DNA of 64,000 nucleotides, taken from positions 1,240,001 to 1,304,000 of the forward strand of contig JABVCE010000007.1 of NCBI GenBank assembly GCA_014905635.1, given 5' to 3'. This stretch comes from Scenedesmus sp. PABB004. Taxonomy: Eukaryota. Positions 4,224 through 54,253 of the stretch are shown piece by piece. Numbering within the stretch: the first letter of the stretch is position 1; the number at the start of each line of letters is the position of its first letter. The notes under the pieces were generated by a model. The model did not search any database and was not told the origin of the DNA. It was given only the letters and a program-made list of their open reading frames with translations. A program made the translations under genes and the position numbers.

Positions 4224-7200
4224 ATGATCATGCAGATCGCACGCTCCGCCGGCCTCACGCGCGGCGGCGCCGCCCGCGCGCCCGCGCTGCGCCCGCCGCC
4301 GTGGGCGCCCGGCGCGCCGCGCGCTGAGGCGGTGGGCCGAGGCCGAGGGACGTGGGCCGCGGGCCGAGGCGCCGCCGAGGCGGCGCCGGACCCGTCGGAG
4401 CAGCGGGCGGAGCTGGCGCCGGCACCCGACAAGCCGCCGCGGGCCAAGGCTGCGACCGCCGCGCCCAAGCCACCGCGGGCCGAGGCGGCGCCGGCCGCGC
4501 CCAAGCCGCCGCGGGCCAAGGAGGCGGCCGCGCCCAAGCAGCCGAGGGCCGAGGCGGCGCCGGCCACGCCCGAGCCGCCGCGGGCCAAGGCGCCGGCCCC
4601 GCCTGATGAGAGCGCGGGGGCCGCCGCCGGCGGCGACGCTGCCGGCGGCGCCGTGCGCGCCGCCCGTGGCCGCAGCACGGAGGCCCGCCGCGCCAGCTCT
4701 GGCGGTGACGTGGGCATGCCGGCCACGGCCACGAGCATGGTCGCCGCGATATGGCACAACCACTTTGCCGGCTCGGAGCGCAAGCTGCAGGAGCGCGGCG
4801 CGGAGCAAGGGGCAGAGGCGGCCGAGGCGGGCGTGGCGCCGGACGCGGCGCTCGCCGCGGTGGCGCCCAGCGTGAGCTGGCTCGACACCGGCAGCGCGCC
4901 CGACGACGAGGGCCGGCAGCTGCACGCCGCCGCCCAGGCGAGCCCCTGGCGGCTGGAGGTCGGCCAGGTGGTGTGCCTGCCGCCGCCGGGCGGCCGCGGC
5001 GGCGTTGCGGCGCCGGCGTTTGGGCTGCTGCAGGCGATGTGGGCGGAGCCGGGCGGCGCGTGCATGGCGCAGCTGCGCGTGCTGCTGCGCGGCGCCGACA
5101 CGCTCCTGGGCGACGCGGCGGCGGAGGCCGAGCTCTTTGTGGGTGACAAGTTCGCCACGCACCCGCTGGCGGCGCTGGCGGCGGCGGGCGGGCCGGTCGA
5201 AGCGATCCGCCTGGCGCGGCCCGTGCGCGGCGCCTGGTCGGCGCGGGCGGAGCACCGGCGCTCCGACGAGCTGCTGGGCGCGGCGAACGCGGTCGCGCGC
5301 GCCGAGGGTGAGCCGGGCGGGGTGCCGCGGCACGGGGCCGTGACACCGCCGCACCCGCCGCGCCCCCGTGACGCCGCCCCCGCCGCCCCGTGACGTACTG
5401 GGGGCCCCTCCTCCCTTGCAGGCCGGCCGCTGCGCTACTTTTACCGTCACCGCTACGACCCAGAGCTGTGCGCATTCACCGCGCTGCCGCCGGACGAAGC
5501 CATGGGCTTTGGCGCCATCACGCCGCCGCCGCCGCCGCCGCCGCCGCGCGCGCCCACGGCGCTCGCCGACGGCGCCGGCTTTGTGGCGGCGGGCGTCGAG
5601 CACCGGTGGGCGCGCAGCGGGGGCGCAGGTCGCGCGCGCGCAGAGCACCGCTGCCGCGCGGCGGCCTCGCGGGCCAGCCAGCGGCGGCCGCTGACGCAGC
5701 GCCGCGCCGCCGCCGCCGCAGGCTTGGTGATCTGCTTTACGTCACGCCCGAGGTATTCCAGCTGGCGGGCGCAGACGGCGCGGACGGCGCGGGCAGCGCG
5801 GGCAGCGCGGGCAGCGCGCCCGACGCGTCCGACGCCTCGGCAGTCGACAGCAGCAGCGAGGGCGAGGGCGCGCCGCAGGCCGGCGGCGGCGGCGCGGCGG
5901 GGGCGGGCGGCGCGCGGCAGCCTGGGTTTGCGCACAAGGGGAGCCTGGACGGCGTGCGGCCGTGGGCGCTGGCGCGCCTGCTGGAGGTCGCGGCTGAGGG
6001 CCCCCGCCTGCGCCTGCGCCTGGAACGCTTCTACAGGCCTGAGGACGTCAGCGCCGAGCTCGGCGCGGCCTCTGATCCGTGGGAGGCCTACGCGCCGCCG
6101 CCGTCGCGCGCCGGCGCGGCGTCGGCCCGCTGGGTCGCGTGGGCGGGCGCCGATGCGGTGCGCGGCGCGGCCACGGCCGTGCCGGCCGGCACGCCGGCCG
6201 CCGCTGCCGGCGCGTGGGCCGCCCACGGCTGGCAGGGCCCGCCAGACGTGTTTGAGGTGGTCGGCACGTTTGACCCGGTCAGCGGCGAGACGGGCCCGCC
6301 GCCGCCCGAGTTTGCGGCGACGGACGCCGACGCGGCTGCGGCGGCGGCAGCGGCCGTGGCGCCGCCGCCGCCCGCCCCGCGCCCGCTGGCCTGCCTCGAC
6401 ATCTTTGCCGGCTGCGGCGGCCTGAGCGAGGGCCTGCACCAGGCCGGCGTGGCGGAGACGCGGTGGGCCATCGAGTACGAGCCCGCCGCAGCGCAGGTGG
6501 GCTGTGGGCCGGGGCTCGGCGGCAGGGCCGCCGCCGGGGCGCGCGCGCCCTGGCCTGGCCTCGGCCGGGGCGCAGAACCGAGCCCCGCCGGCGCCGCAGG
6601 CGTTTACGGTCAACCACCCGGGCGCCAAGGTCGCGACCGCCGACTGCCGCGCGCTGCTGCTCGCGGCGATGCGCAAGGCGGGCGCCAGCGCGGCGGCCGA
6701 CTGCGTCGCGGGCCCCGAGGCGGCGACCGCCGCGGACGCGCTGCCGCCACGCGACGTCGACGCGCTGCCGGCGCCGGGCGAGGTGGAGCTCATCGTCGGC
6801 GGCCCGCCCTGCCAGGGTTACTCGGGCCTCAACGCCGCGCCCAACACGGCGGGCAGCCTTCAAAACTGCTCCATGGCGCGTGCCGTGGCGCCCTGCCCCC
6901 GCGCGCGCGGCGCCACGCCGACCGCCCTCTGACCGCTCAACCCCGTGCCCCGCCCTTGCGCCCCTAAACCCCGCGCCCCGCCGCGCCCCGCACCCTGGCG
7001 CCAGGTCATCACGTTCCTGAGCTACGCCGACTACTACCGCCCCCGCTACTTCCTGCTGGAGAACGTCACGGGGTGCGGCGCATGCGGCGCGGCGCGGCAC
7101 GGGGGCCCACCGCCGTGTGAATTGCTGGGTCGGCGGCGCCGCGGCCCGCCGCCGCGCCCTGCCAGCCGCAAGACGCGCGCCCGCGCGCGCGCGTGCGCGC

Positions 7201-8590
7201 AGGTTTGCGCTGCACGAGGGCAGCCTCACGCTGCGCCTCACGCTGCGCTCGCTGCTCGACATGGGCTACCAGGTGCGGCTCGGCACGCTCAACAGCGGGC
7301 ACTACGGCGCGCCCCAGAGCCGCCGCCGCGTGTTTGTCTTCGCCGCCGCGCCAGGCGAGGCGCTGCCGGCGTGGCCGGCGCCGCGCCACGCGTTCCGGTG
7401 CGGCGCGCGCGCGCAGGCGCGGGCGCGCGCGCGCAGACACCTGCCGCCTGCCGCCGCCGGCGCGCCCCGCGGGCCCCGGCCGCGCCCGACCGCCGACCGC
7501 CGACGGGCTGCCGCGGCGGGGCGGCGCCGCAGCACGCCCACGCTGGCCATCAACCTGCCCAACTCGCGCGCGCCGGCGCGGGTGCGCTACGAGCCGTTTT
7601 CCCACCGCGAGCGCGGCGGGTCGCTGCGCCCGGTCACGGTGGGCGACGCGCTCAGCGACCTGCCGCCCGTCGGCAACGACCACGCCGCGTGAGCGCGCGC
7701 TCGCGCGCCGCGCTGGCGCGGCGCGGGCGCGTGCGCGTGCGCGCCTGCGCCTGGCGGGCGCGCGGCGGCTGACGCTGCCGCGCTTGGCGCGCGGCGTGCG
7801 CAGGCGCGAGATGCCCTACGGCGCGGCGCCGCGCACGGCGTACCAGCGGGCGCTGCGGCGCGGCGCGGCGGAGCTCACCGACCACGTGCCGTTCATGCTG
7901 AACGTCGACGACCTGGAGCGCGTCAGGTGCGTCAGGTGCCGTGCGGCCGGCGGCGCCGGCTGGCCGCGCGCGGCCGACAGCACCGGCGCCGGCGTCCAGC
8001 GGCGGCGGCGGCGGCGACCGACGCTGACGCTGGCGCCGCCCCCGCCACCGCCCTGCCGTGCCGCGCGCAGCCTCATCCCCAAGGACACGCCTGGCGCCGA
8101 CTGGCGCGCGCTTGCGGCAATTGAGGAGAATGAGCCGGGCCGCACGACGGTCAACGTGCGCGCGCGCGCGCCGCGGCCGCCCGCCCGCGCTGCCGGCCCG
8201 CAGCCCGCAGGCCGCAGACCACGCCCTGTCCTCCGCCGCGCGCGCGCGTGCGCCGCGCAGGGCCGGCCGCTGCGGCCGCCGTCGATGAGCGGCCCGCGCT
8301 GGTACGGCTGCTACGCCCGCGTGGACGCGGGCGGCATGTTTCAGACGATCACGACCGCGCCGCGCCCCGGCGCCAAGATGGGCATGGTGCTGCACCCGAG
8401 CCAGGACCGCGTGCTCACCGTGCGCGAGTGCGCGCGCGCCCAGGGCTTCCCCGACGCCTACCGCTTCGCCGGCAGCGTCGCGGACAGGTACAGGCAGGTC
8501 GGCAACGCGGTGCCGCCGCCGCTCGCGGCCGCGCTCGGACGCGCGCTGCGCGACGCGCTCGCGGCGGGCGGCGGCGCCGAGCACGCGTGA
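4224..8590 (+). CDS. MET1/DNMT1-type C5 cytosine DNA methyltransferase with two BAH domains, no RFTS domain
   Basis: Motif [14 protein letters not shown], motif [11 protein letters not shown], motif VI FLLENV, motif VIII QSRRR, motifs [32 protein letters not shown]-like segments ([27 protein letters not shown]) and a MET1-like [11 protein letters not shown] helix lie upstream. Start ATG 4224 is inferred. Confidence 0.9.
4431..4603 (+). repeat. Five imperfect 11-12 aa coding repeats (KPPRA[K/E]AAPAAP) in the methyltransferase N-terminus
   Basis: [58 protein letters not shown] read directly. Confidence 0.8.
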
Positions 8591-39099: not shown

Positions 39100-42000
39100 A
39101 TGGAGGAGCCGGAGGCGGCCGGCGCGCCGCAGAGCCAGCAGTGGACGGTGGCGTGGGAGCCGCCCGCTGCCGCGCCCCGGGCGCACGCGCGGCGCCAGGA
39201 CGACGGCGGGACGGACGCTGAACCCGTCGGAGATGCTCGTCCGGTGGCAGCCGTGCTGCAGCTGCAGCTCTTCGCGCCGGTGCGGCGCGCCGTCGGCCGC
39301 GACAACGGCCGCCGCTGCTGCCCGCCCCCGCGCCACGCTCACCGCCCGCCCCACCCGCCCCCCGCAGCACCCCACGCTCGACTTTGGCAGCCTGGCGGTG
39401 GGCGGCCACAAGACGCTGTACCTGCGCGCCGAGAACGCGACGCTGCTCACCCAGGTGCGCGGCCGCGCCCCCGCCCGCCGCGTCCGCGGCGGTTGCACCG
39501 CACAGCCGCGCGCACGCTCACGCCGCCGCTGCCGCCGCCGCAGCACCTGGCGGCGGAGAAGGTGCCCGTGGCGGACGGCTTCAGCCTGAGCGAGGACCCC
39601 GGCCTGGCGGGCGCGGCGAGCCTCAACTGGAGCGCGACCGTCGCGCCGCACAGCGCGGTCGTGCTGCCCGTGAGCTGGGCCCCGCCGCCGCGGGCGCGGT
39701 GTCCAAGCTGGTGGTGCTGAAGCTGGACGGCAAGCACCGCCTGCAGGTGAAGCTGCTCGGCAAGGCCGCGGCGCCGCAGCGGCGGCGGCCCGGCGACCAG
39801 GCGCTGCGCGGCGCGGCGCACGCGCGCGGCAGCGACGCGCCGCCCAGCCCGCGCGGCGCCAAGGCCGGCGCCGGCCCGGGCGCGCGGCCGCCGCCCGCGG
39901 CGGGCGGCCCGCCGCGTGGCCCCGCGGCGGCGGCCAAGCCGGGCGGCGACCAGGCGCCCGGCGGCTTCAAGGTCCCGCCCCGGCGCAGCGCGGCGGTGGG
40001 CAGCTCGCTGCGCCTCAAGCCGCCCGGCGCAGCAGCGGCCGCAGGCGCGCGGCCGCCGTCGGCCGCGCCGCGCGGCGCCGACGCGGCGGCGCGCAGGCCG
40101 GCGCAGCGCGCCGGCGCGGGCGCCGGCCCGCTCTCGCCGGCCTCGCCGCCGGCCAGGGCGCGCGCCCCGGGCGAGCTGGGCAGCCCCGGGGGCGAGGGCA
40201 GCGTGCGCTCGCTCGCGCTGACCGCGGGCGGCCGGCCGGCGGCCAAGGGCGCGGCGAGCCGGAGCGGCCGGCCGGCGAGCGCCGCCGGCGGCGCGGCCAA
40301 GGTGCCGAGCAGCGCGCGCAAGACCTTCCGATTCTTCCACACCGAGTGAGCGCCGACGCGCGGGGCGGCGCGGCAGGGAGGCAGGGGAGCGGCGCCCGCC
40401 CGCCCGCTCGGCCGCCGCCCCACGCCGGTCCGCACGGCCGCCCACGTGTGCGCCGCCGGCGCGCAGGCTGTGGATGGGCAAGCAGGACCGCGCGTTCACG
40501 GGCTGGCTCAACCACCTGCTGCTGCCCTACACGCCGGAGTACCTCCGCGCCGCGAGCGAGGGCGACACCTCGGCGGCGCTCACCGACCTGCGCCTCGCCG
40601 CGCGCGTCAAGGGCGCGATGCTCGCCGCGTACAGGCGCGTGCTGTTAGTTGTTGACACGCGCCGCGCACGCGGGCGGGCTGGCGGGCGCGGCGCCCCCGC
40701 GCCGGCGCCGCGCCTCGCGACGCCGCGCCGCGCTGCGCGGCGCCGCGCCGTGCAGGGGCGACCCGGAGGTGCGCGAGACGATGATGCGGGTGGAGGCCTG
40801 CATCGACGCGGGCAAGCTGCGCATGAAGCCCGAGGTGCGTGCGGCGCGGCATGGCTCCGCAGCCCCTCTCGCGGCGCGCCGCCGGCCCGCGCCCTGACGC
40901 CGCGGTCCGCGCCGCTGGCTGGCTGCAGCTGGTGCTGCTGGAGGACCTGGTGCAGCGCGCCGCGGTGCTGGACGTGCTGATGTCGTACAACCCCTTCTGG
41001 CTGCGCGTCGCGGTCGAGGTGGTCACGCAGCGCCCGCTGCACCCCGGCGGCGGCGGCAGCGGCCCCGGCGCGGCGGCGGGCGAGGCCCCCGGCACGCCCG
41101 GCGCGCCGCCGCGGCGCGCGCCCGGGTTCAGCGAGGCGATGCGCGCCTTCCTCACGGCGCACTTCCTCGGCGACCGCGACATGGCGGCCGAGGCCGAGGC
41201 GGGGCGCGGCGCGGCGCACTTCAACACGGAGCGCTACCTGGTGCGGCGCCGGGGCGCGCGCGCGCGCGCGGCGCCGGGGCGGCGCGCCCCCCAGCGGCGC
41301 GGCTCACGCGCCGGCCTCGTCCCGCCGGCGCCGCCTGCCAGGCTGAGCTGGGCACGCTCGTGCTGAAGCGCTTCCTGCTGCTCGTGCTGCTGCTCGACCG
41401 CGCGGCGACGCACCTGGCGGGCCCCCTGCGCACGCCGCTGCTCTTCCGCCTCGCCGGCAGCATCAAGAGCTCCAAGCAGGTGCGCCGCCGCCGCCGCCGC
41501 CGTCGTGCGCGGCGCGCAGCCGCGGGGCCCGACCCGCGCCGCCGCCGCACCGCGCCCGCCGCGCCCGGCGCGCCCGGCGCGCGCCGGCAGGCGGTGATGG
41601 AGTTCCTTCACGGCCGCCTCGTGGGCGAGGGCAACGTGGGGCGCCACCTCGAGCTGCTCGGCTACCGCCTGGCCTACAGCCAGAGCCCGCTCATGGAGTA
41701 CCCCTTTGCCGTGACCAACCTCGCGGTCGACCTGCGCGACGGGCTGCGCCTCATCAAGGTGGCAGAGGCGCTCACGGGTGCGGGCCGAGCTGGTGTCCGC
41801 GCCGAGCGGCGGCGCTGCCCCCGCCCGCCGCCCCGCGGCCGGCGGCGCCGACGCCGCCGCCGCCCGCCGCCGCCCGCCGCCGGCGCCGGCCGCAGGCGAC
41901 GAGTCGCTGCTGCCGCAGGCGCGCTTCCCGTCGGAGCGGCGCCCGATGCAGCTGCACAACACGGGCCTCGCGCTCTCCGCACTCGCCGGCGCGGGCGTGC

Positions 42001-45000
42001 CGCTCGGCGCGGTGCCGAGCAGCACCGGCCTGCTCGCGGTCAAGCCGGAGGCCATCGTCGACGGTGACCGCGAGGCCACGCTAGCGCTGCTCTGGGCGAT
42101 CGCGCGCACGCTGCAGCTCGGCGCGGTGCTGCGCCCCGGCACGCTGCGCGCCGAGGTGCAGCGCGTGCTCGCGCGCGCGTGCGCCGCGCCGCCGCCGCCG
42201 CTGCTGCCCGGGTGCGCCGGCGCGCGCGCGCCTGGCGGCGGCGCGGCGGCGGTGCCGCTGGCGGTCTACATGCACGACGAGCTCCTCTCGGCGCTCATGG
42301 AGTGGGTGCAGGCGGTCGCGCGCGCGCACGGCGTGGCCGTGCACAACTTCACGTCCTGCTTCGCCGACGGCGTCGTGCTCTGCCTCCTGGTGCGCGCGCC
42401 GCGCCGCGCGGCACGCGTTGCACCGCGCCGGCCGGAGGCGCGTGGGTGTGGCACCGGTTGCTGACTGCCGGGCTGCTGACGCCACGCCGCGGCTGCCCCT
42501 CGCTGCCCGCCCGCCACCAGGTGCACTACTACCTGCCAAACGCGGTGGACCTCGCCGCCGTCCACATCCCGCGGCAGCGCCGCCAGGAGGCGGCCGCGGC
42601 GGCGGCGCCGCCGCCCGCGCGCGACGACGACACGCCCGCCGACGCCGGCGACGGCGCGAGCTCGGCCGCCGGCAGCGCCGGCGCCGCCGCGCCGGGCGCG
42701 CCGGGCACGTGGCGCGGCGACGACGGCGCCGCGCCCGACGCGGCGGCGGTGTGGGGGGGCCCAAGGGCTGGTACGGCGAGTTTGACGCGGCGAGCTTTGG
42801 CGGCGGCGCGGAGGACCCCGGCGCGGAGGACGCGCGCGGCGTGGCGGCCAACTTCCGGCTCGTGCACCGCGCGGCCAAGGCGCTCGGCGGCGTGCCGGAG
42901 ATGCTCAGCGCGCGCGACTGGACGGCGCACGGGCCGGACGAGCGTGCGGTCATACTCTATGCTGCCTTCCTCGGCGCGCGCCTGCTCGAGTGCAGCCGCG
43001 ACGACCGCGCGGCGCACATCATCCAGAGCGCGTGGCGCGGCGCGCGCACCAAGACGGCCGGTGCGTGCGCGGCGGGGCGCGGCGCGGCGCGGCGGGGGCG
43101 GGGCCGCGGAGGCGGGACCGCGCCGCCGACCGCCGCGCGGCCGCCCCCAGGCATGGCGCGCGCGCACCTCAACCGCTGGGTCGCGGCGGCGGCGGTCATC
43201 CAGCGCGGCGTGCGCGCGTGGCTGCTGCGCCGGCGCCTCGCGGAGTGGCTGGCGGCGCAGCGCGGCGCGGCGCTGGCGCTGCAGGCGGCCTGGCACGGGC
43301 GCGCCGCGCGCGGGGAGCTCGCGGCGCAGGCGGCCGCCGCCGGCGCAATCCAGCGCGCGTGGCGCGGCGTGCGCGCCGCCCGCGCGGCGCGGCAGCAGCA
43401 GGCGGCGCTGATGATTCAGGCCTGCTGGCGCGCGCACGTCGCGCGCGCCGCCAACACGCGCATGGTGGCGCTGCTCGAGCGCGGCCTGGTGGCGTGCCGC
43501 GCGCTCAAGCTGGCGAGGTGGGCTGCGGCGTGGCGCCCGCGCGCGCTGCGGCCGCCCGCACGCCCGGCGGCGCGCCCGACGCGCCCCCCGCCGCCGCGCC
43601 GCCGCAGGCAGGAGAAGCGCGAGGCCGCCACCGCGCTGCAGGCGGCCTGGCGCGGGCGCACGGCGCGCGCAGAGCTGCTGGCGGCGCGCGGCGCGGCGGT
43701 CGTGCTGCAGGCGGCCTGGCGCGGGCGGCAGGCGCGGCTCAGGTGGGCGCTCGCCTGCGCCGCAGCGCAGCGGCGGGCGGCGGCTCGCCCGACACTCACA
43801 CGGCGCCCCGTTCCTGCTGCGACGCAGGCTCCGGCAGCAACGCGCGGCGGCGCTCGCGCTGCAGGCGGCCTGGCGCGGCCGCGCGCTGCGCCAGCAGCAC
43901 CGCCGCGTGTGCGAGGCGGGGCTCGCGCTGCAGGCGGCCTGGCAGGGCTTCAAGGTCCGCCAGGCGGTGCGGCAGAGCCACGCGTTCGCGACGTTCCTGC
44001 AGGCCTGCTGCCGCTGCCGCCGCGACCGCGCGGCGTTCCTGGCGGCGCGCCGCGCCGCGGTCGCGCTGCAGGCGGCGGCGCGCGGCGCGGCGGCGCGGCG
44101 CAGGCTGCAGCAGCTCCAGGCCGCGCGGCGCGCCTTGCAGGAGCAGCGCGCCGCGGCCACGGCCATCGCGGCGGCCTGGCGCGGCAGGGCGGCGCGGCGC
44201 ACCTTCGCACGGCAGCGGTCTGCCGCGCTGACCATCCAGGCTGCGTGGCGCGGCGCGGCCGCGCGCGGCGGCGTGCGCCGCCAGGCGGCGGCGGCCACAA
44301 CCATCGCGGCGGCGTGGCGCGCGCGGGCGGCGCGGGTGCGCCTCGCGCAGCTGCGCGCCGCGGCCGTACGGCTGCAGGCGCTCGTGCGCATGCGCCAGGC
44401 CCAGGCCGCGCTGCAGCGCCAGCGCGCCGCGGCGGTCGCGCTGCAGGCCGCCTGGCGCGCGCGCGACGCGCGGGCGCAGCTCGCGGCGCACCGCGCGGCG
44501 GCGACCATCCAGGCGCACTGGCGGCGCCACATGGCGCAGCGCGAGCTCCGGCGCGCGGTGCGGGCGGCGACGGTCATCCAGAGCTGCTGGCGCTGCCACG
44601 TGTGGAGCGCCGCGCGCGCGGACGCGACGGCCGCGGCGGTGGCGCTGCAGGCGGCGGCGCGCGGCCGCGCGGCGCGCACGGCCTACGCACGCCAGCGCGG
44701 CGCCGCGGTGGCGCTGCAGGCGGCGACGCGGGGCTGGCTGGCGCGGCGGGAGCTCGGCCGCCAGCGCGACGCCGCGGTGGCCATCCAGGCGGCCTGGCGG
44801 CGCCACGCGGCGCGGCAGCGCTTTGTCGAGGCGCGGCGCGCGGCGGTGCTGGTGCAGGCAGCCTGGCGGCGCCACGCGGCGCGCGCCAGCTTCCTGCGCC
44901 AGCGCGCCGCGGCGGTCGCGCTGCAGGCGGCCGCGCGCGGGCGCGCGGCGCGCGCGGAGCTGGCGGCGGCGCGCCGCGCGGCGGTCGCGCTGCAGGCCGC

Positions 45001-47634
45001 GGCGCGGGGCTGGCTGGCGCGGTGCGCGCTCGCGCGGCAGCGCGCCGCCGCCACGGCCATCCAGGCGGCAGTGCGGCGGCGCCAGGCGCAGGCGCGCCTC
45101 GCGGAGGCGCGCTCCGCGGCGGTGGCCATTCAGGCGGCGTGGCGCGGCGCCGCGGCGCGCGCCGAGCTCGGGCGCCAGCGCAGCGCGGCGGTGGCGATCC
45201 AGGCGGCCTGGCGACGCCACGCGGCGCGGCAGCGCTTTGTCGAGGCGCGGCGCGCGGCGGTGCTGGTGCAGGTTGCCTGGCGGCGCCACGCGGCGCGCGC
45301 CAGCTTCCTGCGCCAGCGCGACGCGGCGGTCGCGCTGCAGGCGGCCGCGCGCGGGCGCGCGGCGCGGGCCGCGCTGGCGCTCCGGCAGACCACCGCAGCG
45401 GCGGTCGCGCTGCAGGCGGCGTGGCGCGGGCGCCGCGTGCGCGCCGAGGCGGCGCGCCGCGCGGCGGCGGCGGCCGTCATCCAGCGCTGCGCGCGCGGCA
45501 TGCAGGGGCGCAAGCAGGCGCGGGTGAGCCCCGCCGCCGCCCGCCGCGGGCGCCCGGGGGGCCGCGCGCCGCCGCGGCCGGCCAGCTTACCCCGCCCGCC
45601 ACGCCGCGGCGCGCCCAGATGCGGCGCGAGTACGTGCGGACCGCGGGGGAGCTGCAGAAGATGCTGCTCATGCTCCACACGCGCTCCCGCGCGGCGACGA
45701 CGATCCAGGCCGCCTGGCGCGGCTGGCGGCAGCGCGCCGCGTTTGCGCCGGTCTGGCACGCGCACCGCACGCTCACGGCGGCCGGCGTGCTGCAGCGGGT
45801 GCGCCGCCCCGCCGTGCTCGGCAGCCGCGCGCGCCGCCCGCGCTTCTGCGGCGCGCCCACGCCCACCCGCCGCCGCGTCCGTCGCATTCGCAGGCGTGGC
45901 GGTGCGCGCGGGCGCGCGCGGAGCTGCCGCGCCTGCGGGCGGAGCTGCCGCGGCGCCGCGCGGTGGCCGCCTGGCGGCGCGCGCTGGCCGCGGCGCGCGC
46001 ACACCTGGCGGAGCAGCGCGCCGAGGCGGCGCGCCGCGAGGCCGCCGCGCTGGTGATCCAGAGCGCGGTGCGCGGCTGGCAGGTCCGGCGCGTGACGTCG
46101 CGCCAGCTCGCGGGCGTGCGGCGCTTCCAGGCGCTGTGGCGCGGGCACCGCGTGCGCAAGACCTGCGGCCGCGCGAGCCGGGACGCGCGGCGGCGCATCG
46201 CCGCCGTCAGCGCGGCGGCCGCGTCGGCGCCGCAGCGCCGCATCGGCGTGCGCACGCGCGAGGCGCTCGACGTGCTGCTCGCCAGCCGGCAGTGCTCCCA
46301 GGTGCGCGCCGCGCGCCGCCGCGCTCGCCGCCAGGCGCTGCAGCTCGCAGCGCGCCCACGGCGGCTCGCCGTGCTCACCGCGTCTGCTCCCCCCCCCCCC
46401 CCCCCAACAAACACACACACACACCGCCAGGTCATCACCGCGGTCGCCGCGATTGAGTTTTCCACGCGCTACTCGCGCGCGTGCTGCGCGCTCATGGTCG
46501 ACGCCGGCGGCGTCGCGGCGCTGCTGTCCTTCATGGCGAGCTGCAACCGCAGCCGCCCGCACGTCGAGATGCTCGGCCACGCGCTCGCGTGCCTCGCCAA
46601 CATCGCGCGCTGGCCGGAGCTGCTCCCCGGCGTGCTGACCGCGCCCGACTGCGTCATGGTGCTCAGCGAGCGGCTGCAGATGTTCCGCGACACCGAGGCG
46701 CGCGCGCGACGCTCGGCGGGAGGAGGGGGAGGGAGGGGCAGCCCAGCGCGCGGCGGCGGCGGGCGGGCGCCGGCCCACCCGCGCAGCTGACCGCCGCGTG
46801 GCCGCGTCCCCGCCGCGCAGGACATATTCATGGCGACCGTTGCCATCCTCGCCTGCCTCGTGCGCAGCGACGAGGGCGCGCTCGAGGCGGCGCGGCGCGC
46901 GCCGGGCGCGGTCAAGCTGTGGGAGGGCGTCGCGCAGCTGCTGGCGCGCAAGATGGACATGGAGCGGCGCTACATCGAACGGCTCGAGGGTGCGGCGCCG
47001 CGGGGGCGAGGCGGGGGGCTGGGGGCGGGGGCGGGGGCGGGGGCGGGGCGGGCAAGCGCGCGCGCGGCGCCGCTGACCGCCGCCAACCGCCGCTAACCGC
47101 CGCCGCTGACCGGCGCTGCGCGCAGGGCAAAAGGGCAGCGACGTGACGGCGCGCGAGGCGACGCGCAAGCTCGTGTCCGCCGCGACGCAGCTGGACGCGC
47201 TGCAGCAGGTGCTCGCGCGCGTCGAGTGCGTCGCGGCGGCGCACGGGCTCGAGCTGCCGCGCCTCGCGCGCCCGGGGCAGCCGGGCGGCGGGCACGGCGG
47301 CAGCGGCGGCGGCGCGGGCGAGGCGCGCGAGGGCGAGGAGCTGGTGCCGCGCAACCCCGCCGCCATCGCGGCGCCCAACCACTGGCAGCCCAAGAACACC
47401 ATCGTGCGCGGCGCGTTCAGGGAGAGCGTCGCCACGCGCGCGCACGCCGCCGCCGCGGCGAGCGCGGCCGCCGCGGCCGCAGCCGCGGCCGCCGCGCCAG
47501 CGGCCGGCGGCGACGCCGGGGCGCGCGGCGTCGCGGGGCCGGACGTGCTGCTGGCCGCGGTCCAGAAGCTGGGCTCCGCGGACCAGGAGCTGCGGGGCAG
47601 CGACCAGAGCCACAAGCAGAGCCGCGCGCGCTGA
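39100..47634 (+). CDS. ASPM: Abnormal spindle (Asp/ASPM) homologue: ASH domain, CH domains, long IQ array, C-terminal ARM-like region; two apparent 1-nt frameshifts
   Basis: KQDRAFTGWLN, LMSYNPFWLRVAVEVV, LKRFLLLVLLLDRA, VTNLAVDLRDGLRL, IVDGDREATLALLW, NFTSCFADG, many LQAAWRG IQ motifs, SCNRSRPH. Confidence 0.9.
43015..46150 (+). repeat. Tandem IQ-motif array (about 23-aa period) of ASPM
   Basis: Repeated AAVA[L/I]QAA[W/A]RG..AR units. Confidence 0.85.
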
Positions 47635-47898: not shown

Positions 47899-50800
47899 TC
47901 AGGCCAGCCCCAGCGCTGCCAGCACGTCGCCCACCGGCACGCTGCCGGTGCGGTCCCTGTCCATGCGCCGCCCCAGGCTGATCACCTGCCGTGCGCGAGC
48001 GAGGGCGGCGGGTGAGCGCGCGCACGGCTGCGGGCGGCCGCCGCCCAGCCGCCGTCCCGCGCCGCCGCGCAACGGACCTGGTGGCGCGTGAACTTGAGGC
48101 CCGCCGCCGCGAGCGCGCCCTCCAGCTGCTCGCTGGTCAGGAGGCCCTGCCCGCCTGCGGCCGCGGCCGCGAGCGCGCCGCGCACCGCGCCCGCGCGGCC
48201 TGCCGCCTGCGCGCGCAGCGAGCCGAGCGTGGCGTCGACGTCGGCCATGATGAAGATGTGGCTGTTGTTCTCCATGTAGGTCAGGCTGTACTCGTCCGCG
48301 CCCGTGAGCTCAAACAGGCGTCCAAACACGCTCAGCACGCCGCCGACGTACAGGTCCTGCGCGCCGCGCGGCGCGCCGCGTCGGCCGGCGCGCGCGCTGC
48401 CGGCGGCGGCGCGCGGGGCGCGTCGCGGCGCGCCCCCCGCGCCCCGTGCCTGGTGTGTGTAGATCTCCTCCGACGCGCCGGGCTTGTACACGCGCTGGCG
48501 CTCGAGGAACTTGCCGCCCACGATGCCGCTGTTGCGCAGGGGCGGCTCAAAGATGAGGAGGCTGTCGTCCATGAGGAAGTAGCTCAGCACAAAGCGCCGC
48601 CCCGCGTCGGACGCCGACACCGCCGACCCGGGCGCCATGGCGGCGGTGAAGCGCAGGATGATCTTGTCCTTGTTCATCAGCTTGTGCATGTCCTGTTGTT
48701 GGGTGGCAGCGGTGGTGGTGGAGGGAGGGAGGGGCGGCGGGGACCGCGGCCGCGCACACGGCGGCGGGGCGGCGAGTGTGGGCGGGCGGGCGAGCGAGGC
48801 GGGCGGCGGCGCGGGCCGGCGGCTGTGCCGCGACCGCGCCCCGCGCGCCTTCTTGGGCGGCTTGGGCACGAGCGCGACGCAGTTCTGGCGGCTGTCGTCG
48901 AGGCTGCCGTAGCCGTTGTACGGCGGCAGCGCCGGCCGCGGCAGCGGCGGGATGGGCTCCGCGACCGGCACCGCCTCGAGCGCCTCGGCGGGGAAGCCCA
49001 GCTCGGTCGCGTACCACTCGCGCGTGAAGGCGTCGCAGTCGTGCAGCAGGAAGGCCCGGCTGTGCACGTTGACGTACCCGCCCAGCCTGCCGCGCGTGGT
49101 GGCCCGCGGCGGGCGGGCGAGCGGGGCTCGGCCGGGGCGAGCACGCGCCGCGCGCGCGCGCGCGCCTGCAAGCGCCGACGGCCACGAGCGCGCGCGCGCG
49201 CGCGCGGTGCGCGCATGCCTGAAGTCGGCGGGCGCGTAGCACATGCTCTTGGGGACGCGGCCCGCGAGCGCCGCGTCGCGCGGCTTCTCGCGCGGCAGCG
49301 GGCCGCGCTTGAGGAACGCGGGGAAGGGGTCGCGCCCGCTGTTGCGCTCGTGCACCTGCGCGGCGCGCCCCGCCCACGGGCCGTCGGCGGCGCGCCCGCA
49401 GCGCGCCGCGCGCCGCGCGCGCTGGGCGCGCAGCGCCCGACGCGCCGTGCCGCCGCCGCCGCAAGGGGGCCCCGCGGCGGGCGGGCCCACCTCGAGCACC
49501 TCCACGGTGTCGTCCTCGAGGTAGTAGTGGACCACGTAGGGCCGGCGGTCGCCGAAGAGCCCCGGCCGGTCGTCCCAGAGCGCGTAGAAGCGCAGCACGC
49601 GCCCGCTCTGGCCCAGGAACTGGCGCAGCCGGTCGTCCTCGAGCAGGTGGCTCGGCTTGCCCAGGCGCGCCTCGACAAAGGTGGCGAGGTCGTTGCCCTT
49701 CTTCACTGCGGGCCGGCGCGGCGGCGCGCCGCGGCACGGCCGGGGCTCGGCGCTCGCGGCTGCAGCGCGCGCAGCGCGGCGGGAGCAGCCCGGAGCTCCG
49801 CTTTGATCCCTCTCCGTCTCGTGCGCGCGCGCGAACGCACCGGGCGTTGAGGAGAGGCCAAACTGCTCGCGGTACTGCTCCACCGGGTCGGCCGGGTACG
49901 TGCCCGCGGGGCCGAGCGCCACGTCGAGCTTGTCCGCGTACCTGCCGCGCGGCGGCGAGGCGGCGCATGGCGTCGGCGGCGGCGCACGGCGGCGCGCAGG
50001 GCGCGTCCCCGGCCGGGCAGGCCTGCGCGCCGCCGCCGGCCCTCGCCCGGCTGCTGCGCGGCTGGCGACTGCCTTGCCCCGCCGCGCCGCGCCGCCCACC
50101 ACGCGCGCGTGAAGGCGTCGGCGTCCAGCAGGCGGAAGGTGAGGCCGTAGAGGCTCACCTCGCCGCCGACGGCGAGGTCGGGCGGCGCGATGAGCCCGCC
50201 GCCGCCGGCGCGCTCCACCTGGTGGCGCCGCACAAGTACGCCCTGCGCCGGCGCGGCCGGCGGCGGCGGCGGCGGTCGGCGGCCGGCGCCGGCGGCCGCG
50301 CGCGGCCGGCTCACGCCCAGCGCGCACCTGGGGGATCCCGCTGTTGTCCTGCCTGGGCTCGGTCACCTGCGGCGGCGCGCGTCGCTCACACACGACCGCG
50401 GGCCGCGGAGCGCGCGCGGCGCGGCGCGCGCGCTGAGCTCCACCGCGCTGTGCGCGCTGAGCTCCGTGCGCGCGCGCGCGCGCGCCTGCAGCGTGTCGTC
50501 GGCCAGGTAGTACAGCACCACCACGCGGCGCACGCGGTGGGTCTCCGCCCTGCTCTCGGGCACGGCCTCCTCAAAGTAGCCGAAGAAGCGCAGCACCTGG
50601 CGCGCGCGGCGGCGCGGGGCGGCGCGGGGCGGCGCGGGGCGGCGCGGCGGCGCGCGGGTGTGGGCCCGGCGCGCTGGGGCGGCGTGGCGGCCGGGCCGGG
50701 CCGGGCCGGGCCGTCGCCGCTCGCCGCGCTCCCGGCGGGCAGGCCTCGCGGGCGTGCGTGCTGCGCGCGCCTCGCAGCACGCAGCGCCGCACCTGGCCGT

Positions 50801-51294
50801 TCTGTTCCACCCACTTGGGCAGCGGCGAGCCGGCGGGCGAGGCGGCGCCGGAGGAGGCCCGCGGGCTGCCGCCGCCGGCGGTGTGCGCGGCGGGGATGGT
50901 GAAGCCCACGCCCGGGCCCCGCGCGGGGCCGTCGCTCGACATCAGCCCCGCGTCGGGCGCCTCATGCTGGTAGCCGCGCAGGTAGGTGAGCGTCTGCTTC
51001 CGCCCCAGGCTCTGCTTCTCCAGGCACGGCTGCGCGGCGCGCGAGAGCAGCGGCGCGCGCGCTCGGGTCCGCGCAGCGCCACGACAGCGAGCCGGCGCCG
51101 GCGCCGTGCCAGCTGGTGGCTGGGCCGGGCCTCAGAGCCGTGCGCCGGGCCGGCCCAGCGGGCTGGCGCGCGCCGGCGAGCTGCGGGGGCGACGCGGTGC
51201 AGCAGGCCCCGCCCCCCCCCCCTGCCGCGACCGTGACCGCGCGCCTCACCGGCAGCGTCACGCTGTACCCGGGAAGCTTGGGGATGCCGTCCAT
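47899..51294 (-). CDS. RIB72: RIB72/EFHC1 axonemal microtubule inner protein (three DM10 domains plus degenerate EF-hand tail)
   Basis: PKLPGY, QTLTY..GY, VLRFFGYFEEAVPES..E..RVR..YYL.DDT..EP..NSGIPQG, VLRFYALWDDR, ERNSGRDPFP, PPYNGYGS.DDS.QNC, ILRF..RRFVLSYFLMDD..IFEPP.RNSGI.GGKFLER. Confidence 0.93.
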
Positions 51295-52086
51295 CGCGCC
51301 GCAGCGGCCGCCCTGCACCGTGCGCGGGGGGTGCCGAGGTCGCGTGCGCTGACCGGGCCGCGCTCGCGCGGAGGCGGTCGGGGCCGGGCTGCGAAGGAGA
51401 CGGCAGAGTGCGAGGAGCCGGGCAACGCGCGGAGGCAGCGCTGCGGGCCCGGCGCAGCAGCCGGCGGGGCGGCGTCGTGTCGGGCCGCCCTGCGCGGCGC
51501 AAGGCCACGGTGGTGCACGGCCGTGCACGGCAATGCTGCAGCGGATGAGGCTCATGCGGCCAGGGCAGGGCGGGCGAGCGCAGGAAGCCAGGCCAAGCAC
51601 CCCGCGTGGGTCGCGCGCTGCGCAGACGGCGGCGGCGCCCCAGCACCCGCGCCCGCGAGGGACCGAAGCTCGTCGATCAGCCGGAGCCGAGCTAGGGAAG
51701 CAGCACGTGGGGCTTTGCGCCCCCGGTTGAGCCACCGCGGCGGCGCTTGTGCAGCCAGTGATGGCTGCAGCCGCCGGCCGCGCCGCCGGCGCTCCGCAGG
51801 CCGTGGTACCAGCGCCGCGCCGCCCCGAGGCGAGTGGGGAGCTCGTGGGAGCTCACAGCCTGCGTGGGTGACGCGCAGCGTGAGGTGACGACCGGCGTCC
51901 GAGTTGACAGCAAAAATTCCATCGTCATGTCGCAGATCCAAAGCATGTCGCGGCGATGCGGCGGCGCGGCCGTCCGCGACTCCGCCACTCCCGCGAGCCG
52001 CCCCACCCATCGCACAGCGTCGTGCAGCCGCCGGTCGATCACTGAGCGCACCCGTCCCGCGTTGACGCCCGCGCCCGCGTTCCATC

Positions 52087-52882
52087 ATGGCCCGCCCTGT
52101 CCTCGTGGCGCTGCTGGTGGTGGCGGTGAGTCCGTCGGCAGCACTGCGACCGCGCGCCCGATCGCGCGGGCGGCGGGCAGCGCGCGGGCGGCCGGATGCA
52201 TGGCCGCGACGGCTGCGCCCGGGCAGCCGCGCCGCGGCGCGGTGAATCCGTTCCCGATTGATAACGGCGCGAGCTGACACTCTTCCCGCTCCCGCAGGCG
52301 CTCGCAGTCGCCGCTGGTGAGTCACCGGTCGGCGGCGCCTGGCCGCGGCGGAACCTGGCCGCGGCGACGTACAACCGTGCTTTCACGGCCAAGCAGGTCG
52401 CGACCACGCCCTCCAAGCCGACCCTGCCCGTGTTTGTGACCAAGACCCCCAAGCGCAGCCTGCTGGCGGCGGCCTACAACCGCGCGTTCACGGCCAAGCA
52501 GGTCGCGACCACGCCCTCCAAGCCGACCCTGCCCGTGTTTGTGACCAAGACCCCCAAGCGCAGCCTGCTGGCGGCGGCCTACAACCGCGCGTTCACGGCC
52601 AAGCAGGTCGCGACCACGCCCTCCAAGCCGACCCTGCCCGTGTTTGTGACCAAGACCCCCAAGCGCAGCCTGCTGGCGGCGGCCTACAACCGCGCGTTCA
52701 CGGCCAAGCAGGTCGCGACCACGCCCTCCAAGCCGACCCTGCCCGTGTTTGTGACCAAGACCCCCAAGCGCAGCCTGCTGGCGGCGGCCTACAACCGCGC
52801 GTTCACGGCCAAGCAGGTCGCGACCACGCCCTCCAAGCCGACCCTGCCCGTGTTTGTGACCAAGACCCCCAAGCGCAGCTGA
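52087..52882 (+). CDS. Secreted tandem-repeat peptide precursor (207 aa; exons 52087-52125 and 52298-52882)
   Basis: Exon 1 MARPVLVALLVVA ends at a GTGAGT donor. The intron has a CTGAC branch point, a pyrimidine tract and CAG. Exon 2 is in frame: ALAVAAGESPVGGAWPRRNL followed by five repeats, with 34 of 35 codons per repeat G/C-ending. Confidence 0.8.
52352..52879 (+). repeat. Five tandem 105-bp coding repeats (SLLAAAYNRAFTAKQVATTPSKPTLPVFVTKTPKR)
   Basis: ACGGCCAAGCAGGTCGCG recurs at 52385, 52490, 52595, 52700 and 52805. Units 2-5 are identical; unit 1 differs only in its first 30 nt. Confidence 0.97.
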
Positions 52883-53281
52883 GCTGGTTGGGGCAAGCGT
52901 GCGGACACGCATGTGCGTGTACGCAAGCGCCGGAGCGGAGCAGGTCGGGGCCGGCGGCGCGACCGTCCGTTGACCATTATGCTGCACGGGCACAGGCCTT
53001 CTGCAGTCATAAGACTTGTTTGGCGTACTAGTGCGACGGCACCGCTGGCTGCGCCAGGCGGCGAGATTGAGCTCGAGCGAGCCTAAGAACGGCCGAGTGG
53101 AGAAGCGCGCGCTCGTCGCGGCCGTCTGCCGCGGCGGCCGCGTGTGCCCCTCGCGCCCGCCCTGTGATGTACCCCAATGATTCATTCACCACCCATAAGG
53201 TGGTCTGCCTAGTTGATTGATTGGCCAACAACAACGGCGCTGCACTCCCCAGCATAGACTGCGCTCGAACCGGCTTGCACA

Positions 53282-53286
53282 TGTAA
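53282..53286 (+). promoter_or_regulatory. TGTAA polyadenylation signal, probably of the repeat-precursor gene
   Basis: ATGTAAC 400 nt downstream of stop 52882 and before the convergent LSM2 3' end. Confidence 0.55.
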
Positions 53287-53521
53287 CAGAGCCGTTGTTT
53301 GCTGGATTGGATGGCCGCGCGCGCGGGGCGGAGGCGAGAACGGCTGGAAGCCGGTGCCGCGAGATTACCAGCGCCGCCGCCGAGCCTCCGCGCGCGCGCT
53401 CAGCCCCGCAGCCAGCCTCTTGCAAGCCGCGCCGCGCCGCGCCCGCCCGCCGCGCCCCCCGCGCCGCGCCCGCGCCGCAGCCGACGCTCCGTCCCCTGTT
53501 TCCCTGCGCCGCCCCATCGCT

Positions 53522-54253
53522 TCACGCCGCCGCGCGCGCCTCGCGGCGCGTGGCGTCGTGCAGCAGCTCCACGTCAACGCTGCCCGCCGGCAGCTGCGCG
53601 ACGCGGCAGCAGTGTCGGCGGCGGTGGCGGCGCGAGCCGGCGGCCGACAGCAGCAGACGGCAGCCGCCTGCTGCTGCTCCGCATGCGCCCCCTGCGCGCG
53701 CTGCTGCTGCGCCGCGCCCTCACCAGCACGTAGCGCACGACGGAGCCGCGGACGAAGCAGTTGCGCACCGTCATCTGCGGCGCGACGGCGCGGCGCGGCG
53801 CGGTCGGGGCCCCCGCCGCTCGCTCCCCTGGACGCTGCGCGCCGCGCTGCGCCGCAGCTGCGCTGCCATCGCGGAGCCGCCGTCGCCGCTGCAGAGCGGC
53901 GGCGGCGGCGGCGCGGCGGCGTCGCGGCGCGCACCATGTGCGGGAACTTGTCGCTAGCGACGCGCGTCGCCGAGAGCTTGATGTTGAGGTACTGGTCCAC
54001 GCTGTGCAGCGTGCCCGTGATGGACAGGTCGTTCTTCAGCTCCACCGTCACCTACCCGGCGCGCGGCGGCGGCGGTGGGCGGTGGGCGCGCGGCGGCGAA
54101 GGGGGGGGGGGGGGCGGGCGCGGCCAGGCCTGCAGCGGCGCGGCGCCCTCTGCTGCTGCTGCGGCGCCGCGGCGCACGCAGCGGCGCCGGCCGCTGGCCC
54201 CGGCGCCGCACCTCCTTGCCGACCAGGGTCTTGAAGTAGGAGTAGAACAGCAT
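53522..54253 (-). CDS. LSM2: U6 snRNA-associated Sm-like protein LSm2
   Basis: MLFYSYFKTLVGKE|VTVELKNDLSITGTLHSVDQYLNIKL..KFPHM|MTVRNCFVRGSVVRYV|LP..VDVELLHDATRREA. Confidence 0.97.

Follow-up and report, generated by a model that had tools for sequence, protein, structure and literature searches.

A likely two-exon gene of the green alga Scenedesmus sp. PABB004 encodes a putative secreted repeat polyprotein with recurring R-x-L-x junctions

We analyzed 64,000 nt of the genome of Scenedesmus sp. PABB004 (contig JABVCE010000007.1, positions 1,240,001 to 1,304,000 of the forward strand). This whole stretch is referred to as the window, and coordinates are counted from its first letter. We found that positions 52087-52882 of the window contain what is most likely a real two-exon gene of a green alga, as judged from codon composition, a protein homologue and a small amount of RNA sequence. 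The predicted product, here called the polyprotein, starts with a signal-type N-terminus and continues with five tandem units of 35 residues, and the junction in front of every unit has the motif R-x-L-x. By analogy with known precursors, the polyprotein may be processed at P-[KR]-R-x-L-[LA] junctions into peptides. We give this interpretation, which we tentatively prefer, somewhat less than an even chance of being correct. A first-pass annotation of the DNA had proposed a repeat-peptide precursor at this place.

The gene model is on the + strand and joins 52087-52125 to 52298-52882, giving an in-frame product of 207 codons that ends KRS-stop. The first-pass annotation had claimed a clean 172-nt intron at 52126-52297, and splicing the sequence by script agrees with this. 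The intron has GT..AG borders, with a GTGAGT donor, an internal GCTGAC and a CAG acceptor, and its removal yields the 207-aa product in frame. The parts of the gene and its flanks are as follows.

51295..52086, + strand: upstream divergent intergenic region, presumed to hold the promoter and the 5' untranslated region (5'UTR), between the ATG of the neighboring gene efhc2 and the ATG of the polyprotein gene
52087..52125, + strand: exon 1, the ATG and 12 further codons (MARPVLVALLVVA), which begin the signal-type N-terminus (from sequence and hydropathy)
52126..52297, + strand: intron of 172 nt with GTGAGT, a CTGAC branch-like site and CAG (splice script; the match of an RNA contig stops at 52297)
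52298..52318, + strand: start of exon 2, the remaining hydrophobic signal region ALAVAAG (sequence and hydropathy)
52319..52345, + strand: short pro-segment ESPVGGAWP, with the only acidic residue of the protein (sequence; the homologue P0002 also has ESP after a hydrophobic stretch)
52346..52360, + strand: first junction, RRNLA, an in-phase diverged copy of KRSLL (unit alignment)
52361..52879, + strand: tandem array of five 105-nt (35-aa) units (repeat finding and unit comparison)
52451..52465, + strand: junction KRSLL after unit 1, recurring at 52556-52570, 52661-52675 and 52766-52780
52871..52882, + strand: terminal KRS and TGA stop (sequence)
52883..53300, + strand: probable 3'UTR, where GC falls to 0.64-0.67 (GC profile; TGTAA at 53282-53286)

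TGTAA is the poly(A) signal of chlorophytes. One copy lies ~400 nt past the stop. The pentamer occurs 3 times on the + strand of the window against 2.6 expected, that is, it is not enriched, and it is a weak candidate for the poly(A) signal of the polyprotein gene. Upstream ATGs are present at 51927, 51945 and 51956, in the likely 5' region of the gene. The one at 51927 would open a short upstream open reading frame (ORF) that is closed, after the same splice, by TGA at 52318-52320.

At the 79.9% GC of the window, open frames are no evidence of coding. Stop-to-stop frames of 150 aa or more number 111 between 40 and 64 kb, and three of the six frames are open across the array, which is normal at this GC content. 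The frames differ in GC at third codon positions (GC3). The frame of the first-pass annotation has a GC3 of 0.94 (0.96 inside the array), and the two other open frames have 0.61 and 0.62 (0.53-0.58 inside the array). Other coding stretches in the window have 0.91-0.98. Since GC3 of the coding type is found only in the frame of the first-pass annotation, its gene model is the sensible one. The polyprotein had no match to itself in any of the protein searches (word-based, phmmer and profile), and the gene is apparently unannotated. The genome of Scenedesmus sp. PABB004 is 39.8 Mb with 78.5% GC, in agreement with the window, and its deposited annotation has only 7,092 genes (PMC12571836). A missed small gene is therefore unsurprising.

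The RNA data came from one public run (X1), an oligo-dT RNA-seq run labelled biofilm metagenome, which accounted for 0.06 of the words sampled. We compared X1 contigs with 51700-52470. Positions 51700-52271 were uncovered, a gap that speaks neither for nor against the intron and the 5'UTR. Two contigs fit at 95-99% likeness and together cover 52297-52470; at this likeness they are from a close relative and not from the PABB004 strain. In one contig (142 nt, depth 3.6), the match to the genome begins at 52297, that is, at the predicted acceptor, and 8 further letters lie upstream. The 9 letters before 52298 in this contig (the 8 loose letters and a shared G) agree with the end of exon 1 at 8 of 9 positions and with the intron at 4 of 9. 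Were the relative short of one GTG codon, agreement with exon 1 would be 9 of 9. The 9-mer occurs 7 times in the window, counting both strands. These results are a hint that the predicted acceptor at 52297/52298 is used and joined to exon 1. We count the contig as weak to moderate support, because its 8 letters on the exon-1 side are below our 31-letter rule for bridging. At the alternative GTGAGT (52317) the same contig continues unbroken, but only 20 of its letters are to the left of that site, also below the 31-letter rule.

We did not use a second joint in X1 that skips 81 nt (52362 to 52444), because one of its sides has 27 letters (below the bar of 30) and it arises from the repeat. There the contig passes from 52362 to 52444-52470, with two extra letters, and has a standard unit start. 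If this joint is real, the relative would carry, after RRNL and ahead of its first full unit, an additional piece resembling TPKRSLL; the joint may also be an artefact of assembly.

The repeat array is highly regular. Tandem Repeats Finder reported a period of 105, 4.9 copies, 99% matches, 0 indels and a score of 1010 for 52361-52879. Among the 11 tandem-repeat rows of the 64-kb window (rows were kept at a score of at least 150), this was the only one with a period >3 and above 85% matches. Units 2, 3 and 4 are identical at every base. Unit 5 is the same as these through base 99 and then has the TGA stop. Unit 1 deviates at 4 of 105 bases, two of which change GCC to ACG (Ala to Thr) and two of which are synonymous. 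In protein terms, a unit is a 30-aa core, AA(A/T)YNRAFTAKQVATTPSKPTLPVFVTKTP, followed by KRSLL, and the final unit closes with KRS.

The comparison of units changes several details of what had been proposed. The first-pass annotation described five identical 30-aa peptides. There are indeed five repeat units, but four are identical and the first is the Ala-to-Thr variant. In addition, the cuts that had been proposed (after RRNL and after RSLL) would make the first peptide 31 aa long. It had also been noted that the first unit makes a similar motif from different nucleotides. In-phase alignment indicated that RRNLA is a diverged copy of KRSLL and not an independent invention. We did find, as described, that KR is retained at the end of the last unit, where the product closes KRS-stop, and that the core lacks Asp, Glu, Cys and Gly.

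We searched for relatives of the polyprotein in several ways. A word-based search among proteins of similar length gave 123 candidates, none with E <= 0.01. Using phmmer against 1,835,955,588 representatives, 8 proteins were found with E <= 1e-3, and 2 of these had E <= 1e-10. In a profile search started from the polyprotein, P0002 alone was found among the 8000 candidates scored. No relatives were found in metagenome contigs, whether queried with the polyprotein or with P0002, in viral contigs or in prokaryote genomes.

These comparisons make a convincing case, at the level of sequence, that P0002 is the only credible homologue. P0002 (214 aa; a JGI singleton on a 6,174-bp contig) was found by phmmer with an E-value of 2.8e-12 and is 48% identical to the polyprotein over 116 aa. 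It has a similar layout: a hydrophobic start, ESP, TRQLL, and three diverged 33-aa units, each ending PKR and trailed by LLL, ALL and LLL, respectively. The E-value is inflated by the repeats, as shown by an unrelated protein, P0001, that scores the same. Scoring the units singly removes the multiplying effect of repeats. Compared with shuffles, the three units of P0002 had z values of 8.5, 10.0 and 4.8, and 0, 0 and 2 of 2000 shuffles reached the score. After the third unit and KRLLLAA, P0002 has an unrelated tail (residues 171-214), ending ..KSALL.. and ..RLLASR, which might be read-through or a fourth unit with a frameshift. The first 45 residues of P0002, with a V start, resemble the translated upstream sequence of a prokaryote-style gene call.

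The other seven proteins were set aside or left in doubt. P0001 (E 2.6e-12) is an unrelated repeat protein whose match consists of a QVATT..P..V.V word; its identity is 25%, and gaps make up 28%. P0005 and P0008 have bacterial-type repeats. Unit z values of P0001, P0005 and P0008 were 6-7, the level of chance matches picked from 1.8 billion proteins. P0003 was set aside as an unrelated repeat protein on its printed sequence alone, and P0004 and P0006 by score alone. P0007 (277 aa) has four 34-aa units, ..QQLLAA..N.T...SCAA..P.ALVKY.T.P.., with QQLLAA in place of KRSLLAA and no basic pair. Its units had z values of 1.4-3.5 against shuffles. It is a weak look-alike of the polyprotein, and kinship is not established.

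The predicted protein has the properties of a secreted, disordered polycation. At the N-terminus, MARPVLVALLVVA followed by ALAVAAG has a Kyte-Doolittle 11-residue mean of up to 3.4 over residues 5-15. By hydropathy there is one uninterrupted hydrophobic run of ~16 residues there and no later hydrophobic segment. This N-terminus is of the signal-peptide type, as had been proposed. The polyprotein has an isoelectric point (pI) of 11.97, a net charge of ~+31 and a single acidic residue. The 30-aa core is 3178 Da and ~+4, is rich in Thr, Ala, Pro and Val, and has 3 Lys and 1 Ser. Its Pro residues are isolated only (TP, KP, LP, TP).

The polyprotein is, according to the models and comparisons, intrinsically disordered, without a fold or known family. 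AlphaFold2 with a two-row alignment gave a mean predicted local distance difference test score (pLDDT) of 43.5 and a predicted template modelling score (pTM) of 0.10. The model had only two short helices, in 2 of 5 units, on LAAAY(N) just past the junction, with pLDDT <70. The Atlas model of P0002 had a pLDDT of 0.40, and its best feature matches, 0.80, were at the level of shuffled proteins. The whole polyprotein scored above the cut-offs of two Pfam families, RMF (PF04957; 35.7 bits) and BTHB (PF18410; 33.0 bits). We rejected membership in both, because these scores are the sum of 4 identical partial matches of ~23 residues. A single unit alone scored 13.9 for RMF (cut-off 27.9) and 15.7 for BTHB (cut-off 25.6). 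P0002 matched no Pfam family, and no sequence in the PDB matched the polyprotein at E <= 1. A match of the repeat to a known folded repeat domain had been named as a test of the peptide-precursor proposal, and none was seen in the AlphaFold2, Pfam or PDB comparisons.

Evidence for processing comes from the junctions. Taking the polyprotein and P0002 together, R-x-L-x is present at 9 of 9 junctions (one RNLA, four RSLL, one RQLL, two RLLL and one RALL), 8 of 9 junctions are dibasic, and KR closes all 8 units. The residue that varies in the junction (S, N, Q, L or A) is at the position left free in the consensus for the subtilase S1P. The pattern conserved in the core and its end is R-x-[FW] ... 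A ... P-x-K-P-x-x-P-x-F ... P-K-R-x-L-L. The first-pass annotation described units preceded by RxxL and followed by KR. The units are bounded in this way, but when all junctions are read in one register, the motif they share is R-x-L-x, or [KR]-R-x-L.

Processing would involve several steps. The putative hydrophobic signal peptide, which is split by the intron, would be cleaved, leaving the 9-residue pro-segment and five 35-aa units. Subtilases of the endoplasmic reticulum (ER) or Golgi would cut the P-[KR]-R-x-L-[LA] junctions. Cleavage could be of the S1P/SBT6.1 type (after R-x-L-x or RxxL), of the kexin or proprotein convertase (PC) type (after KR, with carboxypeptidase trimming), or both. 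To give five like products, the KR(S) tail of the last unit must be removed, so KR cleavage or trimming would be needed besides any R-x-L-x cut, as in silaffins. The peptides released outside the cell would be one variant and four identical molecules of ~30 aa and ~3.2 kDa, each +4 and rich in Thr, Ala and Pro. Their site of action might be in or at the wall or matrix, or they might target neighboring cells or bacteria. What the analysis shows is the gene structure and frame, the repeat anatomy, the junctions conserved in P0002 and the lack of a fold; from these we infer secretion, cleavage and any activity of the peptides.

Several observations weigh against processing or against parts of the model behind it. 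Because the junction motif belongs to the repeat unit, its recurrence within one protein is not independent evidence. Similarly, the first junction is what remains, in phase, of a unit tail, so it may be present through ancestry and not selection. Core and junction are alike conserved in P0002: the polyprotein matches 12 of 16 columns that are invariant in P0002 and 9 of 17 that are variable (Fisher p = 0.17). The units follow one another without the variable spacers of many prohormones. Basic cleavage motifs are not very specific; PC-type sites are found in 756 of 771 Chlamydomonas signal-peptide proteins (PMC6313938). The core has no Gly for amidation and the units end TP-KR, so the polyprotein cannot be amidated or serve as a substrate of peptidylglycine alpha-amidating monooxygenase. 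Amphipathicity of the core is low, with a hydrophobic moment of 0.23 that was equalled or exceeded by 792 of 1000 shuffles. The repeat-inflated E-value of P0002 and the few exon-1 letters in the RNA contig belong on the same side. Asp-Tyr is the sequence context for Tyr sulfation, and no such context can be read in the peptide.

We considered two specific versions of a peptide product and set both aside. An antimicrobial peptide in the form of an amphipathic helix is not supported by the hydrophobic moment and shuffles just described. A peptide made by ribosomes and then modified after translation (RiPP), or another product of a biosynthetic gene cluster, was rejected because the neighbors are housekeeping genes and none of the protein families named below was matched among 100 window ORFs.

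The main alternative, which we consider somewhat less probable than processing, is that the protein stays intact. It would then be a secreted, polycationic, Thr/Pro-rich, disordered repeat protein located in the wall, in an adhesive layer or in the matrix of the coenobium, perhaps hydroxylated or O-glycosylated. In that case P-K-R-x-L-L would simply be a conserved part of the repeat, for example a short helix cap or a patch that binds anionic polymers. This fits the abutting units without spacers, the conservation in P0002 that covers the core as much as the junction, and the predicted short helices, which sit solely on LAAAY(N), just after the junction. The net charge and pI also suit binding to anionic wall polymers. 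P0007, with QQLLAA and no basic pair, would, if truly related, favor a structural motif, but the z values of its units (1.4-3.5) do not establish kinship. Contiguous Pro or Ser-Pro(n) modules are the defining motif of hydroxyproline-rich glycoproteins (HRGPs) of the extensin and pherophorin type. The polyprotein lacks these modules, which are typical of algal and plant HRGPs, and it had no HRGP-type match in Pfam. Two further features weigh against an intact protein. The array stops after KR-S, which leaves the last unit like the others only if KR is a cut site, and 9 of 9 junctions fit a published protease consensus and vary at its free position only.

A more elaborate form of the processing interpretation is that an S1P-like and a kexin-like protease act in relay in the Golgi and release five 30-aa cationic peptides that are bioactive outside the cell. 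We think this unlikely in its full form. If it were correct, the peptide would be a cell-cell signal (in coenobium or colony formation, or in gamete behavior) or an anti-bacterial agent in biofilms. The polyprotein would also be the first known from a green alga to carry pro-peptides as tandem repeats, with a junction logic convergent with silaffins and with fungal KEX2-processed repeat proteins (KEPs).

It is very improbable that the polyprotein is a pyrenoid linker or another intracellular repeat protein that undergoes phase separation, analogous to EPYC1 or CsLinker, with helices that bind Rubisco. The protein is largely disordered (pLDDT 43.5), and its 35-aa spacing is within the 20-120 residue range of FLIPPer (PMC11570498). 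It also has a high pI, and the model shows short repeated helices, of low confidence, in 2 of its 5 units; these helices, however, are below pLDDT 70. The uninterrupted hydrophobic N-terminus of ~16 residues is typical of an ER signal peptide and unlike the known character of green-algal chloroplast transit peptides, and P0002 also begins with a hydrophobic stretch. Least likely of all, and hardly credible, is a non-coding minisatellite in GC-rich DNA in which open frames, start codon, intron and signal peptide coincide by chance: long open frames are indeed ubiquitous here (111 of at least 150 aa in 24 kb, and three over the array) and the product is missing from the protein collections searched, but coding-type GC3 (0.94-0.96) is confined to one frame, P0002 has diverged units in the same phase, contigs of a relative are present in an oligo-dT library, one of them leaving the genome at the acceptor, and the deposited annotation is small enough to have missed the gene.

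The neighboring genes identify the host. On the minus strand, the adjacent gene (47985-51294) encodes three DM10 domains of the RIB72/EFHC type. It is 100% identical, over the 241 residues searched, to efhc2 [Scenedesmus sp. PABB004] in NCBI, which confirms the earlier designation of the DNA as algal. The next relatives were from other Sphaeropleales, at 52-53% identity among the 48 proteins listed. The start codon of efhc2, located from the sequence of P0009, is at 51294 (-), and efhc2 and the polyprotein gene therefore diverge from a 793-bp spacer. Downstream of the polyprotein gene are an LSm gene (53368-54051, -) and an ATP12 chaperone gene. We found no match to subtilase, prolyl hydroxylase, tyrosinase, DUF3328 or BURP families among the 100 window ORFs selected by GC3 (Pfam, E <= 1e-5), and tblastn found no paralogue of the polyprotein within the window.

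In Scenedesmus sp. NREL 46B-D3, one deposited protein (P0010) has three DM10 domains after an LSM domain (residues 7-71). Because P0010 carries both, the LSm and RIB72/EFHC genes are adjacent and on one strand in that strain and were merged in its annotation. In the window the LSm and efhc2 genes are 2.1 kb apart, with the polyprotein gene between them on the opposite strand. The polyprotein gene might have been inserted in one lineage only, or NREL 46B-D3 might also have it, overlooked in annotation.

Other parts of the window were also noted. The efhc2 model P0009 has 815 aa, compared to 574-676 aa in most relatives, and has stretches rich in Arg, Ala and Pro between the DM10 domains. In sequence these stretches look like translated introns, which suggests that gene models of this 78.5% GC genome are unreliable. 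At 44119-45467 (+) there is a degenerate array with periods of 69, 138, 207 and 276 nt (64-74% matches) and many IQ motifs (PF00612, E 3.8e-27), downstream of a CH-domain piece at 41715-42461. Together the two are probably a CH-IQ, ASPM-like protein. Two ORF pieces at 7021-8587 (+) match C-5 cytosine DNA methylase (PF00145, E 5.5e-07 and 8.1e-16).

We compared the polyprotein to several known systems with cleaved precursors. Two of its peptide strings occurred in 0 papers of the literature searched (main texts). Within the same scope, the only work on repeat-peptide precursors of chlorophytes was the Chlamydomonas series, besides work on land plants. The architecture is well known from fungi, diatoms and animals. 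The polyprotein is a homology-free example of it in a lineage in which we found no other tandem-repeat example.

Insect precursors of the apidaecin type contain many cationic Pro-rich peptides in tandem with dibasic sites between them; they are animal immune genes and have dipeptidyl spacers. We know of no homology between them and the polyprotein.

The Chlamydomonas precursors are from the same algal class as the polyprotein. Chlamydomonas has PC-like subtilases and an S1P-like subtilase, Cre14.g628800 (PMC6313938). It also makes at least one bioactive peptide, GATI-amide, that modulates chemotaxis of gametes (PMC6919629). Given the neuropeptide-like precursors, predicted in large numbers, and the subtilases described in these papers, the statement in the first-pass annotation that such an architecture was unrecognized in green algae was too strong. 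Precursors such as Cre03.g204500, the source of GATI-amide, have a signal peptide, comparable to the signal-type N-terminus of the polyprotein, and resemble it in having paired-basic sites and Pro-rich regions. In contrast to the polyprotein, precursors of the Cre03.g204500 type are large (94 kDa), have no arrays of identical units, and need a Gly-basic site for amidation.

Plant S1P substrates have similar cleavage sites in a different arrangement. The specificity of plant S1P/SBT6.1 is RxxL/RxLx, and its proven site in RALF23 is RRIL, cut before A (PMC13082318). This closely resembles RRNL and (K)RSLL of the polyprotein, both of which are also followed by A. Given the signal-type N-terminus, these junctions would be exposed to the lumen of the secretory pathway. 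The known substrates RALF23, GOLVEN/CLEL and PROSCOOPs belong to conserved families and have a single C-terminal peptide, in contrast to the tandem array here. We found no homology of the polyprotein to plant families of S1P-substrate peptides.

In fungal KEPs, among them the yeast alpha-factor precursors, KEX2 cuts after KR and KEX1 trims the products; the Rep1 peptides of Ustilago maydis stay on the hyphae (PMC6339444). A KEP was defined by Le Marquer et al. (2019) as a protein in which cuts at KR/RR give at least 4 fragments of at least 2 aa with a repeated motif (PMC6339444). When cut in silico at KR/RR, the polyprotein gave 7 fragments, five of them 35-aa repeats, and by this definition it resembles a KEP. 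The definition also asks for a signal peptide at the N-terminus and for the absence of a membrane anchor; by hydropathy the polyprotein has a hydrophobic run there and no such segment further on. It differs from KEPs in that its host is not a fungus, there is no homology, and SLL follows KR instead of the XA/XP dipeptides of the STE13 type. In addition, its junction bears an R-x-L-L motif that is needless in KEPs. Rep1 has units similar in length to those of the polyprotein.

Hardly anything is known about peptide signals and defence peptides in green algae, and GATI-amide of Chlamydomonas was the only worked example that we found. The polyprotein offers a hypothesis that can be tested chemically: the exact masses are known, Scenedesmus can be cultured, and each precursor would give a five-fold dosage. 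If the protein stays intact, it would be an ordinary lineage-specific protein of the wall or matrix. The gene also shows that annotation of extremely GC-rich algal genomes misses small repeat genes.

The closest analogue in architecture, missing from those listed in the first-pass annotation, is Sil1p of the diatom Cylindrotheca fusiformis. Sil1p has a signal peptide followed by an RXL motif and by basic repeats R1-R7, and the RRIL or RRNL at the repeat ends is missing from the mature peptides (PMC4557024). A dedicated RXL endopeptidase was proposed (PMC4557024). Sil1p and the polyprotein differ in several ways. There is no sequence homology between them, and Sil1p has Lys/Ser clusters (KXXK), polyamines and phosphate and is embedded in silica, whereas the polyprotein has 3 Lys and 1 Ser per 30 aa and a single KxxK (KTPK). 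The pro-domain of Sil1p is long and acidic, and the pro-segment of the polyprotein has 9 residues. Scenedesmus is not known to make biosilica. Nonetheless, both proteins have a signal peptide (a putative one in the polyprotein), an early R-x-L motif and basic tandem units that end [KR]R-x-L, and RRNL, one of the repeat ends of Sil1p, is literally the first junction of the polyprotein, 9 residues past the predicted signal region. The junction motif of the polyprotein could expose the logic of the still unidentified "RXL" endopeptidase that acts on biomineralization proteins of diatoms.

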